DNA from: Longimicrobiales bacterium
Lineage (GTDB): Bacteria; Gemmatimonadota; Gemmatimonadetes; Longimicrobiales; Gaopeijiaceae
Length of the DNA stretch: 64,000 bases
Direction of reading: 5' to 3'
Assembly (NCBI GenBank): GCA_965198065.1
Contig: CBDAON010000004.1
Coordinates: forward strand, 1,280,001 to 1,344,000
Part shown: in pieces, positions 44,900 through 58,994 of the stretch
Layout of the letters: each line of letters opens with the position of its first letter
Numbering within the stretch: position 1 is the stretch's first letter
Position numbers and translations under genes: made by a program
The notes under the pieces: model-generated
What the model saw: the letters and a program-made list of their open reading frames with translations, nothing else
Told to the model about the DNA's origin: nothing
Database searches by the model: none

Positions 44900-44973
<74 letters not shown>

Positions 44974-46950: not shown

Positions 46951-47838
46951 CTAGAGTTCAAGCGCGGCGGGATCCCGGTCGGTCGGCCCTCGCAGGGAGG
47001 AGCGATCTCCGCCGTCGCCCACGCCGAGTGAGCGAAGCAGGCGCGCGGCGGCCGGTCCGTTGGCGTGCATCCGGAACCCGGCGGCCACCTTGGCACGTAT
47101 GGAGCGAGCCCGGTAGTTGCCCGATGCGACCTCAATGTTGACGCGTCCGGTGCGCCCCTCGGAGTCGGTGTACTCGATCTGCGCATCCGGGTAGAGCACG
47201 CGTCCCCGCGCATCGATCGGCAAGCCGAGCTCCTCGGCCACGCGGTGCCGCTCGGCGTCTGCGGCCCGCCGGCCGTCTTTCGCCCGCGCGAACTCGCTCT
47301 TGCGTGCTACGGCGCTCTTGAACTCGCCGTCGAGCCGCACACGGCGGACGGTGGCCCCCTGCTCGATCAGGCGTTGGTGCTCCTGGCGGCAGGCCCGATA
47401 GATGGCGGTGTCGTGCGCGGCTTCGGCGGGCCGGGTACGTGCGAACCCGATCTCCTGGCCGGGATCGATTCCCCGCTCGGCGGCCAGCTTCCGGGCCTCG
47501 GCCACGCCTTTCCGCGTGAGGGTCAGCACCTTGAACGGGTTGCCGTTGGGTCCAGTGGCTCGGGTTTCTTGGGCGAGCCCCTCGCGGATCCAGGCGTTCA
47601 CGGCCCGCCGCGTGGTGTAGGGATGGCCGCCGAAGTGAGCCTCGGCGAGATCGCGGTACGAGACGGCGCCGTAGATGCCGATGTCGGCGAGCGCCCCACG
47701 GCACCGTTCGCGGAAGGAGATGGACCCGCGGTCCCGGCTCGCGTCGTATTCTCGGCGATGGCCGTCCCGCATGCGGTAGATAGCGCGGCTTTGCGGCGCG
47801 GCGGGACGCGGGTCCAATCCGATCGTGCGGTCGAACAT
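46951..47838 (-). CDS. Winged-helix plus PD-(D/E)xK-like protein, candidate Replic_Relax/MOBC-like relaxase
   Basis: wHTH-like N-half (LTLTRKG), AHD motif, YPDAQIEY...NIEVASGNY nuclease-like motif; AAGGAG RBS. Confidence 0.55.
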   Translation of the reverse strand: MFDRTIGLDPRPAAPQSRAIYRMRDGHRREYDASRDRGSISFRERCRGALADIGIYGAVSYRDLAEAHFGGHPYTTRRAVNAWIREGLAQETRATGPNGNPFKVLTLTRKGVAEARKLAAERGIDPGQEIGFARTRPAEAAHDTAIYRACRQEHQRLIEQGATVRRVRLDGEFKSAVARKSEFARAKDGRRAADAERHRVAEELGLPIDARGRVLYPDAQIEYTDSEGRTGRVNIEVASGNYRARSIRAKVAAGFRMHANGPAAARLLRSLGVGDGGDRSSLRGPTDRDPAALEL

Positions 47839-52403: not shown

Positions 52404-53338
52404 TCATCGGAAGTGCGCCCCGGAGAGGCGCACCGTTTGCCAGGTGCGGCCGGTGTGGATCGGCCCTCGGCCGCGCTGCCGACGTGCCTGCTTCGTCAGC
52501 GTGACGCTGCGTTTCAGGGCGGCTTGCAGGCCTCCGAACTCGTCGAGGATCTGGATCGCACCTTGAAGGATGGCGCGCTCGATGCGGTCGATCTCTTCAC
52601 GGATCCCGGCGTCCGGTTCGGCCGGGCCGGAGGCTTCTGCCCAGCCGCCGAGTATCGCCCGGGCCCGAGCAAACTCCTCGAGGGTGCGGACGACGGCCAC
52701 GACCTCGACGGATCGGCCGCGCTCGCTGAGCGCTTTCCAAAGGCCGCGGTGCGCTTCGCCCCAGGAGCGGAGCGCGGTCGTGGTATCGTGTCCGGGATCG
52801 ACGTAGACGAACACGGCGCGCTCGGCTTCGAGCGCGACCGGCAGCTTGACTGGGAAGTAACGCCGCGTGTTACCGGCCGCTCCGCGGTAGAGCCGCGAGG
52901 GCAGGATCCGGCGTTCGATGCCGAGCGCCTCGAATGCGCCGACCTTCTCGGACTCGGTCGGCAGCCACGGCAAGTCGGGATGCTCGAGCACGTAGTCGAG
53001 CGAGAGCAGGCGACGCATGAGCACCGCCTCGGAAGCGGCCCGGCGGTGGCGGATGTCCTCGGCGCCGAGCGCTCGGTAGATGCGCCGGCTGAAAATCCTG
53101 CACACGCGGCCGATGCCATTGATGCCGGGCACGGTCTCTTCGGTGGCCGCGCCTTGCGCGATCAGGGCGTGGACGCCGCGCCGCACCTGTTCGGGATGCG
53201 CATCGAGGAACCGGGACCACTGGGCGCGGATGAACACGCCGCTGTGGAGACAAGCCAGCGCGATCCATTCGGGGCCTGGCGTCCCGTCCAACCGAACGGC
53301 TCAAGGGCCGCTTCCCGTCCCCGCAGATGGGCGATCAC
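52404..53338 (-). CDS. ICE hypothetical protein (frameshift near 53272)
   Basis: GTGA overlap with the virB8 stop; MIAHLRGREAALEPFGWTGRQA continues as EWIALACLHSGVF after correcting a C-run. Confidence 0.7.
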
Positions 53339-53804
53339 CTGGGCTGCTCCGTGACCAGGGCACGGTCGGCCTGGAGGTAGGTGATGAGGATGCCCATCGG
53401 GTTGTAGACGACGAACTCGGAGGGAATGACGGTGAGGAACGTGAACCGGAGCGTGATCGACCACCGCTCCCTCAGGGTCTCCTGCCCCTGCCGGAGGTGG
53501 ACTAGGTCGAAGTCGGCGGTCGCGCCGTGGGGTGCCTCCGGTGCGGGGTGGATGCGGAGCACGGCCTGCTCGACCTGGAGCTCGGTGTCGGCGGTGCCGG
53601 CCGCCATGGCGGCGACCTCGGCGCCGTCCCTCGTGAACGCGGCGTTCGCCAGCTCGGTCGAGAGGAAGCGTAGGCTCCGGGTCCAGTGCTCCTCGACCGT
53701 CGCCTGGCGCCTGGAGTAGAAGTCGGCGATGAACCGGTTCAGGAAATACTTGGTCGTGGGATCGAGCGGATCCGCCTGCGCCGTTGCGGCCTCGTAGGCC
53801 ACGG
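53335..53804 (-). pseudogene. virB8: virB8/TrbF C-terminal (periplasmic) segment, separated by the nested element
   Basis: KYFLNRFIADFYS...YNPMGILIT VirB8 signature; begins within the 19-bp repeat (VAYEAA). Confidence 0.85.
53786..53804. repeat. att core direct repeat, left copy
   Basis: GCGGCCTCGTAGGCCACGG, identical to 58777-58795. Confidence 0.95.
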
Positions 53805-53913
53805 ACATCCAGAATCTACCGGTGTCCAGTGCCATCCAGATAGATTGCTAAATTACTGTAGTTAAAGGGCTTTATCTACCTTATCCGGCATCTTGCGCGG
53901 CTCGCTACATCCC

Positions 53914-55219: not shown

Positions 55220-55303
55220 GGCTGGCTCATGACCCCTTAAGGGTCAAGAGCCAGCCTACCCTTTGTACCCACAAAGGGGCTGGCGAGGGGCTCCGCCCCT
55301 TCG
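55220..55303 (-). other. oriT-like module 1
   Basis: Minus strand: AGGGGCGGAGCCCCT hairpin, GCCAG, inverted repeat CCCTTTGT-gggt-ACAAAGGG, TAGG-CTGGCTCT, then a further inverted repeat. Confidence 0.5.
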
Positions 55304-55551
55304 ATCCCGAAGGATGCCCGCGCTCTGCTGCGGTGTGCCGTGCTCGCCCAGCGTGCGAGCCGTGTCCGGTCGCGCCCGATGGAGCCTGGCCAGGCGGCTC
55401 CGCAGCGACCGCCTCAGCGTCACCGGCGCAGCTCGCGCCCACGCTCGGCGGACACCGCTCGAGGGGTTGGCCGAAGGGCCGGAGTCCCGGGGAAGGCGCC
55501 TGGCCCCGGGAGGGAAGGAGTGGCCCCCCGGTTCCGATGCCACGGGCTAAT

Positions 55552-56172
55552 TCAACTGAACGTCGCGGCCCCCGAGAACGACTCGTTGATCTGAGCGCCG
55601 CACGCCTGCCCGGCGACTGTGATGCTGAACCCGAGCAACGCGTCCGGATCATCCACCGACTCCAAATCCACATCCATCCGGCATGACCCACTCCGACCGT
55701 CGCCCGTGGCCCACTGAACCGTCCCGGCCACGGTGCCGCTGATCTCGAACATGAACTCTGTCGAGATTGACAGCTCGATGCTCATCTCCACCTCGGGCGC
55801 GCCGTCCACGGTAAAGGTGATCCCGGTCCCCGTGTGCCTCTCCATGCAATCCGCGTGAACAAGGGTCGCCGACACGCCCACGCCGGCGCCGTCGTCGCCC
55901 GGTCCTAGGGAAGGCGTGACCTGTGCGTCCACTGCCACCGTTCCACCTATCGTGCATTGGCCCGTGAACTGTAGGCTGGCGCCGCCAGGGGTCACGATCT
56001 CGTTGATTTCGTCGCCGCTCAGCAGCTGGAGGCCGGGGTTCATCGTTACCTCGAGGAGCGCGAGAGCCTCCGCCGGGGTCAGCGAGTCTTCGGGCTCCGT
56101 CGAGCTGCCACCGCCGCAAGAAGCCACGGCTAGTCCGACACTCAGAATCACCCCTGCTCGAATTCGGCGCAT
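55552..56172 (-). CDS. Lipoprotein of unknown function (cargo)
   Basis: MRRIRAGVILSVGLAVASC lipobox; acidic, beta-rich body with Cys residues. Confidence 0.8.
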   Translation of the reverse strand: MRRIRAGVILSVGLAVASCGGGSSTEPEDSLTPAEALALLEVTMNPGLQLLSGDEINEIVTPGGASLQFTGQCTIGGTVAVDAQVTPSLGPGDDGAGVGVSATLVHADCMERHTGTGITFTVDGAPEVEMSIELSISTEFMFEISGTVAGTVQWATGDGRSGSCRMDVDLESVDDPDALLGFSITVAGQACGAQINESFSGAATFS

Positions 56173-56529
56173 AAGTCACGTCCTCTGTTGTGGCAATTTC
56201 TGATTCGGGAGCGCCAACTCGCGAATCGATCCCGGCCGGTCGCCTGAGCGGGCGTGAGCGGGATCACCCGTTCCGCAACCACCGGCGAGCCCTTCTCTTC
56301 GGCACGCCCCGACCGTGTCCGGATGTGCCGTGATAACACTCCCGGAGCCTAGGAGGTCCTGTGTGGGCGCCGCCGGGTTGAGCCGGAGTGAGATCCCTGA
56401 CTCGGGCTCGGGTCGGTCACTTTGTGACGAGCGAGTACCGGCGTTCAGTAAGGCCAACAGCACGGCAGGCGGGCGAGCGAGCCGGGCGGCCGCTCGCTGC
56501 CCCGGCAGCGGCCCGGTAAGTTGGGGGTT

Positions 56530-56616
56530 CAAGGGGGGCGCAGCGTCCCCTTGGCCAGACCGCAATGTTTGACATTGCGTGGGCTGGCTTAAGCACCTTA
56601 GTGTCCGTCTAAGGTG
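56530..56616 (+). other. oriT-like module 2 with ColE1/MOBP5-type nic motif CTGGCTTA
   Basis: CAAGGGG..CCCCTTG hairpin, GCCAG, inverted repeat CGCAATGT-ttg-ACATTGCG, TGGG-CTGGCTTA (56584-56591), inverted repeat CACCTTAG-N7-CTAAGGTG. Confidence 0.6.
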
Positions 56617-56912
56617 GCGCGACGGCGGTCGGAAACGCACCCGCCGGGGGGGTGTTGGCCCCCGGCTTGCGCGTCCCCTCTGAGTTGCTGGTGAAGCTCT
56701 CGTGGGCTCACCTCCGGAGCCGGTCACGGTGCGGGGGGGTGAAGCGATCCGGCGCGCAAGCCCGCCAGGTTCGCACGTGCGGGGATCGGATCGGCGGGGC
56801 ACACGGGGCCTCCGGGGAGCTTCACCGCCGGGGGGATCGCATCGCAAGCGCTGGCGCTAGGCAGGGGCGGTCTGAAGGAAGTAGTGGTCTGATCTTCCTG
56901 TAACGAAGACGC

Positions 56913-57272
56913 TTAGGCTGGGTCTCCTTTCTTGATACGAATTCCTGCGCAGAAATAAGCGATGATCGCCCACGCCGGTATGACCAAGTACGGAAACGGG
57001 TCGGTTGCGATCTCGAAGGCAATGTCATTTCGCAGAATAATCAACAGCACTATAGACACCAGAGCCAAGGCTTCTACGGACCTCCGAAGCATCGTCTCCT
57101 TTCTCAAGCCTAGGAGTCTCCTCTTTCGAGACCGGTAGGCGAGAGCGCCAAGAATCATAATTGGTCCGGCAATGAATCCTGCCGTGTCGTCCCCGGCCGC
57201 CAACCGGGCGGGAGCTCCGAGGAAGTAGATGGCGCCAAACACAATGGCCAGAGTGGATCCTAGGAACCGCAT
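56913..57272 (-). CDS. Small four-TM membrane protein (cargo, lower GC)
   Basis: Four hydrophobic segments with a basic loop RSRKRR; start uncertain. Confidence 0.7.
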   Translation of the reverse strand: MRFLGSTLAIVFGAIYFLGAPARLAAGDDTAGFIAGPIMILGALAYRSRKRRLLGLRKETMLRRSVEALALVSIVLLIILRNDIAFEIATDPFPYLVIPAWAIIAYFCAGIRIKKGDPA

Positions 57273-57720
57273 GTCTGGCACGAACCGGTTCGCTTTCACG
57301 ACAAACGCCTCCTCACCCGTAGGATGTAGCGAGAGGCCAATCTTAGGGGATCGCATCCGGGAGCGAGCCCGCCGGGGCGGATCGGATCGCAAGCCTGCCA
57401 GGCGCGCACATGGCTGCCTCCGGACCTACTGGGAAAGGTGCACCGGGTGGTGCCGTTAGTCCGACGGTCCAAGAGAAACCGGTGTGTAGAATGCGACCAT
57501 GCGGCACGTGTGGCATACGAGAGGAATTACGGGGAACAACTCATCTTCCTCGGACTGCCCCTGGAGGAACCATAGCCTACTGCCGGGTTCCAGAGTTTCT
57601 TGGTTCCGGCAATGTAGGCAGATGATGCCATGCTGGCGCAGGTGAGCTGATTACTCTCCTCAGCTCTTCACTGGTCAGCTTATCGGACCGGGTGTACTCG
57701 ATTCTGTCCGGATCCATGCG

Positions 57721-58311
57721 TCAGCCGCAGGCTTCCTCATTCACGCGGAGGTAGTCGAGGATGAACCCGTCCAGGTACTCGGACACCGTTTGCATGATGA
57801 AGCTCGCGCTCCCGCCGTGTGTGCCGATGGTGTCCCTTTCCCATGTGGTGGCCACCCCCGATTCTCCGCTTCTGGGGTCTTGGACGGACTTAAAGAGCTC
57901 TAGGCTGATATCGAACGCCGGGCTGAACGTCCTGATATTCAGCTCCAGCATCTGGCCGCCGCCCGAATCGTACAGCCTAGCGGCCCGCAACCGGCTCTCC
58001 ACCATCGTCCAAACGCGCTCCTTGGTGAGCCCCATTTCCTCCGCCTCGTCGCCTGAGACTAGACCGACGGCATACACCGGCGCGCACTCGGTGAATAGCC
58101 CGAAGCGGTCAACGTACGTCCCGTCCAAAATCTCCGCGAACACGTTGCACGGCGGCAGTGCCTGGTCCGGGTCGGCGGACACCGGCGGAGCGCCTGACGG
58201 GTCCTGCTCCGGGGCGGGCTCCGCCCTGTCGAAGTCGTCAACCTGGCACGCGAGCGGCACGGCGAGCGCGAGGCCCGCCAGAGCGAGCTGGCAGACACGG
58301 TGGGCGCTCAC
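57721..58311 (-). CDS. Lipoprotein of unknown function (cargo)
   Basis: LAVPLAC lipobox, Pro-rich linker, globular C-terminal domain. Confidence 0.75.
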   Translation of the reverse strand: MSAHRVCQLALAGLALAVPLACQVDDFDRAEPAPEQDPSGAPPVSADPDQALPPCNVFAEILDGTYVDRFGLFTECAPVYAVGLVSGDEAEEMGLTKERVWTMVESRLRAARLYDSGGGQMLELNIRTFSPAFDISLELFKSVQDPRSGESGVATTWERDTIGTHGGSASFIMQTVSEYLDGFILDYLRVNEEACG

Positions 58312-58760: not shown

Positions 58761-58994
58761 TTATAATCTTTCTGTCGCGGCCTCGTAGGCCACGGCCTCG
58801 GCGCGGCCGACCTCGTCGACCCGCACCACGATGGGCCTGGGCGGCTCGACGGTCGCGATGCGAAGGAGCAGGACGGCGAGCGCGAGGCATCCCCCTGCTA
58901 GGATGATTGCAAGAGTCCGGAGCTTTCGGTTCGCCTCGACGGTCTCGCCCCAGATCTCCGCGTACTCGCGGCCGGCATCGTGTTCTCGGTTCAT
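58761..58994 (-). pseudogene. virB8: virB8/TrbF N-terminal segment (cytoplasmic tail plus TM), truncated by the nested element
   Basis: AAGGAG RBS; MNREHDAGREYAEIWG...TM...PIVVRVDEVGRAEAVAYEAAT, then ERL* inside the element. Confidence 0.88.
58777..58795. repeat. att core direct repeat, right copy
   Basis: GCGGCCTCGTAGGCCACGG, identical to 53786-53804. Confidence 0.95.

Follow-up and report, generated by a model that had tools for sequence, protein, structure and literature searches.

Two opposed MOBP-type oriT homologues of different subtypes on a relaxase-less element inserted in an ICE virB8 gene of a Longimicrobiales bacterium

A 4,991-bp integrase element, delimited by a 19-bp direct repeat, interrupts the virB8 gene of an ICE in a Longimicrobiales genome and carries two modules, M1 and M2, that are confirmed by sequence comparison as homologues of MOBP origins of transfer of the ColE1/pAsal1 kind (Table 1). 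Neither a relaxase nor an MPF system is encoded inside the att limits. The reading favored here, to which we assign a probability of roughly 55%, is that this passenger is nicked in trans by the MobC and relaxase of sibling elements and exported through an ICE T4SS, its two sites being what remained after decay of the mob genes. The oriT family and its link to mob genes hold even if the passenger is inert. "The window" denotes the whole 64,000-nucleotide stretch of DNA that was analyzed.

Table 1. Features of the passenger element and of the interrupted virB8 gene (window coordinates)
Feature	Position	Strand	Remark
Split ICE virB8, C-terminal part	53335..53804	-	Pfam VirB8, E 1.6e-4
Left att direct repeat (19 bp)	53786..53804	+	Within ICE virB8; identical to 58777-58795
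P4-like tyrosine integrase, 410 aa	53949..55181	+	Pfam Arm-DNA-bind_3, Phage_int_M, Phage_integrase
M1, MOBP-type oriT homologue, class B scaffold	55220..55303	-	Class B profile, 56.8 bits
Remnant of class-A mobC pseudogene, 3' part	55325..55403	-	Alone not significant (E 0.5-0.8)
Inverted 45-nt piece, 5' part of the same mobC pseudogene	55408..55452	+	45/45 identical to L128:7934-7978
Predicted lipoprotein, 206 aa, cargo between both oriTs	55552..56172	-	No Pfam/NCBIfam match
M2, MOBP-type oriT homologue, class A	56530..56616	+	Class A profile, 72.5 bits
Predicted membrane protein, cargo, start uncertain	56913..57392	-	No family match (Pfam, NCBIfam)
Predicted secreted protein or lipoprotein, 196 aa, cargo	57721..58311	-	No Pfam/NCBIfam match
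Split ICE virB8, N-terminal part	58761..58994	-	
Right att direct repeat (19 bp)	58777..58795	+	

Direct reading of the letters bore out the description of both modules and their parts in an earlier note on this DNA, with one specification: CTGGCTTA is present in M2 only, and M1 has CTGGCTCT. M1, read on the minus strand, consists of a GC hairpin, GCCAG (55284-55280), the arms CCCTTTGT/ACAAAGGG (55278-55271 and 55266-55259, separated by a 4-nt loop), TAGGCTGGCT, and an imperfect 37-nt palindrome (55256-55220) overlapping the nic motif. M2, on the plus strand, consists of a GC hairpin, GCCAG (56554-56558), the arms CGCAATGT (56561-56568) and ACATTGCG (56572-56579), TGGGCTGGCT (56580-56589), and a 3' repeat, CACCTTAG/CTAAGGTG (56594-56616). 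Using the cleavage position CTGG^CT, which we presume to carry over from work on ColE1, nic is predicted between 55251 and 55250 in M1 and between 56587 and 56588 in M2. The palindrome 3' of the M1 nic re-forms GGCTGGCT on the other strand, so the nic motif may be able to pair with either the upstream or the downstream GCCAG; palindromes in this position are frequent among integrase-adjacent modules.

Several statistics indicate that the scaffold is more than chance. The single-stranded DNA folding z-scores are -7.0 and -6.0, with none of 200 shuffles equally stable, and the scaffold pattern occurs at 11 places in the host genome compared with 1, 0, and 0 in three order-5 Markov copies. Class profiles built solely from relaxase-adjacent modules of other genomes, with the host (G000) left out, recover M2 at an E-value of 5e-20 (class A) and M1 at 4e-15 (class B). 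These profiles find 14 sites in the host genome, two of which adjoin intact operons; 5 of the 12 sites that lack one are broken or truncated at nic, as judged by eye.

The link to mobilization genes was surveyed in 67 full-length relaxase hits from 71 loci, two of them from the host, a set enlarged by 40 further top-ranked places. The earlier note had allowed that homologous modules might never lie next to relaxase genes; in fact a module stands head-to-head upstream of mobC in 48 of the 67 full-length relaxase loci, which upholds its assignment of the modules to MOBP-type oriTs, and in most of the 19 loci without a module, mobC is truncated or nic is damaged. Such relaxases are present in 29 of 201 genomes of the family. 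The family of sites comprises 111 distinct modules, 47 of them paired with their MobC and relaxase. M1 and M2 both qualify as homologues of the oriTs of these relaxase-bearing elements and both have an inverted repeat 5' of the conserved nic motif. Across 33 aligned short-arm modules, GCCAG/CTGGC is nearly invariant and the arm is 99.2% paired, with four of its eight pairs changed on both sides. The scaffold recurs upstream of mobC in pAsal1 and in a Methylomarinovum plasmid, and in ColE1 the GC hairpin and CTGGCTTA have the equivalent strand orientation with respect to mbeC; the nicked strand is opposite to mob transcription, a layout shared with ColE1 and pAsal1.

These observations largely refute a primary role as terminators or REP-like repeats, a reading that is now scarcely credible. 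Strong hairpins, 14 copies in one genome, and an M1 downstream palindrome 40 nt past the integrase stop codon are what such a role would lead one to expect, but neither module was called by a terminator scan or matched in Rfam, position and orientation upstream of mobC are fixed, and the scaffold recurs in proteobacterial mob plasmids. A blastn search of plasmids with M2 returned eight weak records, seven of them staphylococcal. In the one examined more closely, the Staphylococcus aureus plasmid CP030482, an intergenic stretch (L104:1490-1570) repeats this arrangement of GC hairpin, arm, and nic-like layout; the plasmid is typed as non-mobilizable, and the site is possibly an unrecognized orphan MOBP oriT, which we offer as a lead only.

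The ICE that carries the passenger runs rightwards from tRNA-Ile (44900-44973) with the gene order integrase, ArdC, VirB11, coupling protein, VirB8, VirB6, VirB10, VirB9, and a partial VirB4-like ATPase; the search for its right end gave just a 12-nt tRNA match 51 kb away. Between the coupling-protein gene and virB8 the ICE has an unannotated gene for 295 aa (52404-53291, minus strand); its Atlas matches are all hypothetical proteins, and many fragments of it are scattered over the host genome. A third ICE copy in the host has uninterrupted virB6, virB8-virB11, and coupling-protein genes. The att site is present in single copy in three other virB8 copies of the host genome, and one such empty site, when read through, has a continuous frame. 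The left end of the passenger (53805-53835, minus strand) gives the C-terminal half of the split virB8 an in-frame ATG (ORF 53335-53835), and the cell could therefore still make a VirB8 fragment that lacks the TM segment.

Between its att repeats the passenger holds the integrase gene, M1, the lipoprotein gene, M2, and two cargo ORFs. The integrase gene looks intact, with all of the catalytic R-K-H-R-H-Y residues found in the translation by eye. Its family, which has 35 matches in the 3-Mb host genome and members within ICE virB8 and coupling-protein genes flanked by 19-20-bp repeats (in the host and at L028, L135, and L144), is one of elements aiming at ICE transfer genes. The 206-aa lipoprotein was considered as a marker of the element and rejected: homologues occur in 37 of 201 family genomes and, over 20 mapped loci, are seldom near an oriT or a passenger-type integrase. 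A 30-nt imperfect direct repeat (56750-56779 and 57383-57412) on either side of the membrane-protein ORF could be the mark of a cargo cassette.

The description of the element as relaxase-less also held: the whole window has no PF03432 or PF05713 match, and tblastn of the host MobC, relaxase, MbeB, and MbeD against it gave nothing significant among the matches listed (E of at least 0.007). No insertion at the same virB8 position was found across the att junction in 201 genomes, with about three candidates scored per genome, and no junction of an excised circle was found among the listed joints of four DNA runs (contigs). Two of the runs, X6 and X8, have near-identical pieces of the spacer and lipoprotein gene, and no listed contig spans M1 or M2.

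That M1 and M2 serve a relaxase of the ICE itself is very unlikely, even though the element sits in the ICE and requires its T4SS, because the part of the ICE within the window has no MOBP relaxase and the modules track MbeA-like relaxases. The one candidate, a weak one, is a conserved gene adjoining ardC (46951-47838, minus strand), for whose product a winged helix is predicted at the N-terminus and a PD...E.E-like motif is seen toward the C-terminus. It falls in a Replic_Relax cluster of the Atlas at 0.90, with 1083 homologues. Neither it nor its close homologues has a Pfam match, and PF13814 and PF08751 were negative for it; a fold and PDB search gave weak winged-helix similarity, with no fold match at E<=0.001 and no PDB sequence match, and an alignment-based structure model reached a pLDDT of 61. 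The product is possibly a divergent MOBC-type relaxase of the ICE family, a MOBC-like lead at best, and probably does not act on M1 or M2.

The two modules were expected by the earlier note to differ in specificity, and they prove to be different subtypes, associated with different clades of relaxase and MobC. Forty-eight modules were classed by sequence as A (M2-like, 18), B (M1-like with a short arm, 13), or C (long arm, 17). In a relaxase tree of 48 rows, class A occupies one side of a 100/99 branch, with B and C mixed on the opposite side; in a MobC tree of 46 rows, from which two rows with truncated MobC were left out, the three classes need only two changes. M2 is confirmed, as far as the trees and module classes go, to belong with one relaxase clade (class A) and M1 with the other (B/C). 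MobC ribbon residues also track the arm, a T at one position accompanying (G/C)ACATTG arms in two separate clades, with L095 the sole exception. Covariation of oriT and mobC is expected from linkage too, so linkage alone could yield much of this pattern. A family in which arm and MobC ribbon vary together is nonetheless a test set for the evolution of oriT specificity and for weighing gene loss against capture as the source of hitchers.

The earlier note had supposed helpers that need not be the occupied ICE and had suggested a search of the host genome for MOBP relaxases; the candidates found are sibling mobilizable elements. Two mobC-relaxase-mbeB-mbeD operons are intact in the host chromosome, one of class A (G000:C4:2853113-2854964) and one of class C (493601-495431), and a module stands head-to-head upstream of both. 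The class-A operon belongs to a 14.4-kb sibling element, flanked by a 20-bp repeat, in the coupling-protein gene of another ICE copy. M2 is identical to the oriT of this operon at 49 of 57 nt, and M1 shares with the oriT of the class-C operon an identical 19 nt across nic; neither operon's oriT arm equals that of M1 or M2. The 19-nt arm and loop of M2 are those of two relaxase-adjacent modules (L043 and L069), and its arm adjoins an intact operon in two of seven modules. The MobC beside this arm reads TVTVAAR in its ribbon, as against TVMIAAR in the host class-A MobC, which goes with a different arm; the mismatch of ribbon and arm makes the class-A helper in the genome only near-cognate for M2. 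At G000:C4:1742747-1743346 the host has a third, more distant pair of mobC and PF03432 relaxase genes, with no family module detected nearby.

For M1, none of nine modules with its arm adjoins an intact mob operon. A GTDB-wide scan for this arm gave nine matches at eight loci, and one more came from a metagenome scan; an intact operon was present at none of them. M2 is the better candidate for a working site. The records with the M1 arm are titled Longimicrobiales, Gemmatimonadota, and, in one case, Rhodothermales; the M1-type site in this Rhodothermales genome (L154) hints that the elements cross phyla.

Relatives of the passenger bear on how it came to have two sites. In three of them (L128, L133, and L149) a mobC of class A with a frameshift forms the spacer, reaching from the A site into the B-site flank, and the L128 spacer can be aligned along an intact mobC. 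The window retains parts of this gene: the 3' remnant together with M1 is 97% identical (246/254 nt) to the L128 spacer, and the 45-nt piece of its 5' part is oriented opposite to the remaining cassette. A mobC nucleotide profile run on the window alone was not significant. The lipoprotein block is inserted between the M1-side mobC remnants and M2. Mobilization remnants are not peculiar to this locus, as mobC remnants flank most of the other orphan sites in the host, and the native layout of integrase, oriT, mobC, and relaxase is seen at L021. Since the sites flank a mobC pseudogene in close relatives, and part of it is kept beside M1, M1 and M2 are most simply explained as native oriTs left around a decayed mobC.

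This origin tells against the proposal of the earlier note that the passenger collected oriT mimics. Singly acquired foreign mimics, taken up in the manner of staphylococcal plasmids and selected so that the element holds several, would account for back-to-back pairs of different class in 13 of 13 cases (described below) and for arms exchanged as blocks within one scaffold: a C arm stands in the frame of M1 at L133 and L144, and the arm of M1 stands in the frame of M2 at L149 and L167. Capture is nonetheless improbable, given that the cassette derives from the oriT-mobC locus of the element family itself, the idea being weakened by the pseudogene and by the native arrangement at L021, and that two sites are not strictly retained.

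Pairing of different subtypes is recurrent, a point in support of the earlier note. Over 67 loci chosen by oriT patterns rather than at random, 22 pairs of neighboring modules fall within 6 kb. Thirteen have a back-to-back orientation, seven are tandem, and two convergent, and below 1.6 kb every one of the 11 pairs is back to back. The 13 back-to-back pairs come from eight other genomes, five of them from one genome, and every one joins modules of different class by best profile. Searches with the class-A pattern found 20 of 29 chosen genomes positive, with 64 hits in all (reversed control, 0), and 20 regions were mapped from these hits, selected for clustering or for having no adjacent relaxase. 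At L128 the arms of both M1 and M2 are unchanged and lie 299 bp apart. Among 314 genomes, 8 contain matches to the cassette itself, 12 in total. Eight relatives were mapped, a count that excludes the window, two duplicates, and one intact operon; seven have one site within about 1.5 kb and in the eighth the A nic is broken. The features that appear to be new are the recurrence of back-to-back pairs joining different subtypes, the swapping of arms, and the lineage; in the literature within reach, which excludes most subscription journals, no description of these elements was found.

A more elaborate reading of the pair, which we regard as doubtful, is a retunable twin-origin cassette: two opposed oriTs for two relaxase clades, kept by relaxase-less hitchhikers in ICE secretion genes, with helpers switched by block-wise exchange of the MobC-binding arm between the invariant brackets GCCAG and CTGGC, and with MobC ribbon and arm forming a readable code. 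On this reading there would be a three-tier chain of parasites, in which a hitchhiker depends on the relaxase of a sibling IME and on the pilus of an ICE. Strong selection for two sites is itself in doubt, because none of the nine modules with M1's arm adjoins an operon and close relatives are often single-site.

Signs of relaxase use were sought in the 111 distinct modules, all with intact nic, whose pairs are not independent: in 93 pairs the 5' flank and arm agree but the 3' flank differs, in 53 only the 3' flank is common to both, and 16 pairs agree in 5' flank, arm, and 3' flank. Among the 124 pairs alike upstream, identity falls from 1.0 at nic+2, where the pattern forces it, to 0.38 at nic+4. 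Such reassortment matches the trace expected from relaxase-driven recombination between oriTs, a process documented in the part of PMC4902927 that is accessible (compare PMC4652767), and is likely the footprint of a relaxase acting in trans. Perfect short arms of at least 7 bp were found at 27 of 32 sites without mob genes versus 29 of 31 with them, at loci picked by oriT patterns in which kin are not independent. The spacers of cassette copies are still about 90% alike, so perfect sites may be recent instead of selected.

These results also weigh on the possibility that the passenger is an inert relic, its oriTs inherited from two fused and decaying mobilizable elements, its movement that of ICE cargo or of excision and reinsertion within the cell, and its sites under no selection. 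We consider this possible, at odds well short of even. It fits the mobC pseudogene between the sites, the mobC remnants beside most other orphan sites of the host, the many broken host sites, the seven single-site relatives among eight, and the lack of a cognate operon for the arm of M1; two convergent mob operons that lost their middle would give the back-to-back orientation as well. It sits less easily with the intact cores of both M1 and M2 beside a frameshifted and partly inverted mobC, with the recurrence of the pair in eight genomes with different spacers, and with the switching of flanks at nic even among copies of the relaxase-less cassette, which points to relaxase action after mobC was lost.

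Under the favored reading of trans mobilization, the integrase would excise a circle at the 19-bp repeat and thereby restore virB8. A class-A MobC would then bind the arm of M2 and its relaxase would cut CTGG^CT or, alternatively, a B/C relaxosome would nick M1, on the other strand. The coupling protein and T4SS of an ICE would export the nicked strand, and the integrase would reinsert the element into an ICE gene. Opposite orientation would mean that one site cannot terminate transfer started at the other, so the pair would not be deleted; directly repeated oriTs recombine out, according to the accessible part of PMC4902927.

Among known systems the closest are the iOriTs, integrative elements with an oriT and no relaxase (bioRxiv 10.64898/2026.01.13.699239, available in part). 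According to that part, a subset with iMOB-like oriTs needs the relaxase of a hitcher and the MPF of a third element, origin through gene loss is discussed, and, across six nosocomial species, 85% of islands have one oriT and the rest often have two of the same family. The passenger likewise has an integrase, att sites, and oriTs and lacks relaxase and MPF; unlike the iOriTs described in the accessible survey text, it has two subtypes back to back, belongs to the Gemmatimonadota, and is nested in an ICE T4SS gene. By its make-up it would work like an iOriT with iMOB-type origins and is best described as a variant within that class. The accessible portion of PMC10123127 offers parallels in the logic of pOriTs, and that of a report on PIMEs (10.64898/2026.01.12.698999) shows that the obvious helper may fail to serve an oriT whose repeats are altered.

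OriT mimic plasmids of the staphylococcal pWBG749 family, with two to three subtypes per element, are experimentally proven (PMC4652767 and PMC8136818, as far as their available text goes). Like these carriers, the passenger combines several oriT subtypes on one relaxase-less element, and, in the features given in that text, both systems have sites with a common scaffold and core and a variable inverted-repeat arm, recombination between sites, and a ribbon-helix-helix accessory protein as specificity factor. As there described, the staphylococcal carriers are plasmids that use the relaxase of a conjugative plasmid, whereas the passenger is integrative and its candidate helpers are MbeA-like relaxases of mobilizable elements; its sites appear to come from the mob locus of its own family rather than from unrelated helpers.

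The ColE1/pAsal1 module (mbeC-mbeA-mbeB-mbeD plus oriT) has the same gene order, oriT position, and CTGGCT motif, as well as an MbeD match, but resides on small plasmids, whereas the elements described here are chromosomal integrase elements. Host MobC and relaxase are 36-45% and 31-33% identical to ColE1 MbeC and MbeA, respectively, and the relaxase is 47% identical to that of pAsal1. In a point that does not bear out the ColE1 family named in the earlier note, the relaxases have the 3H (HxH) motif HRERxGGVHxHV, as in pAsal1, in place of the HEN motif of ColE1, whose MbeA has HQDKGRLELNF. Placement of the helper relaxases in the strict ColE1 MOB-HEN family was accordingly rejected, and they score 115 and 88 bits against an NCBIfam MbeA cut-off of 500.

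Streptococcal IMEs insert in the ICE genes traG, snf2, and maff2 (PMC5357655, in its accessible part). The passenger resembles them, as there described, in site-specific insertion into an ICE conjugation gene that excision would restore; they have serine integrases and a relaxase of their own, whereas the passenger has a P4-like tyrosine integrase, targets virB8, and lacks a relaxase. Hitchhiking on a relaxase in trans has been described until now chiefly from nosocomial species and staphylococci; on the reading favored here it extends to a Gemmatimonadota lineage, with an added layout of two different oriT subtypes on one small island that is uncommon according to the available text of the iOriT survey.
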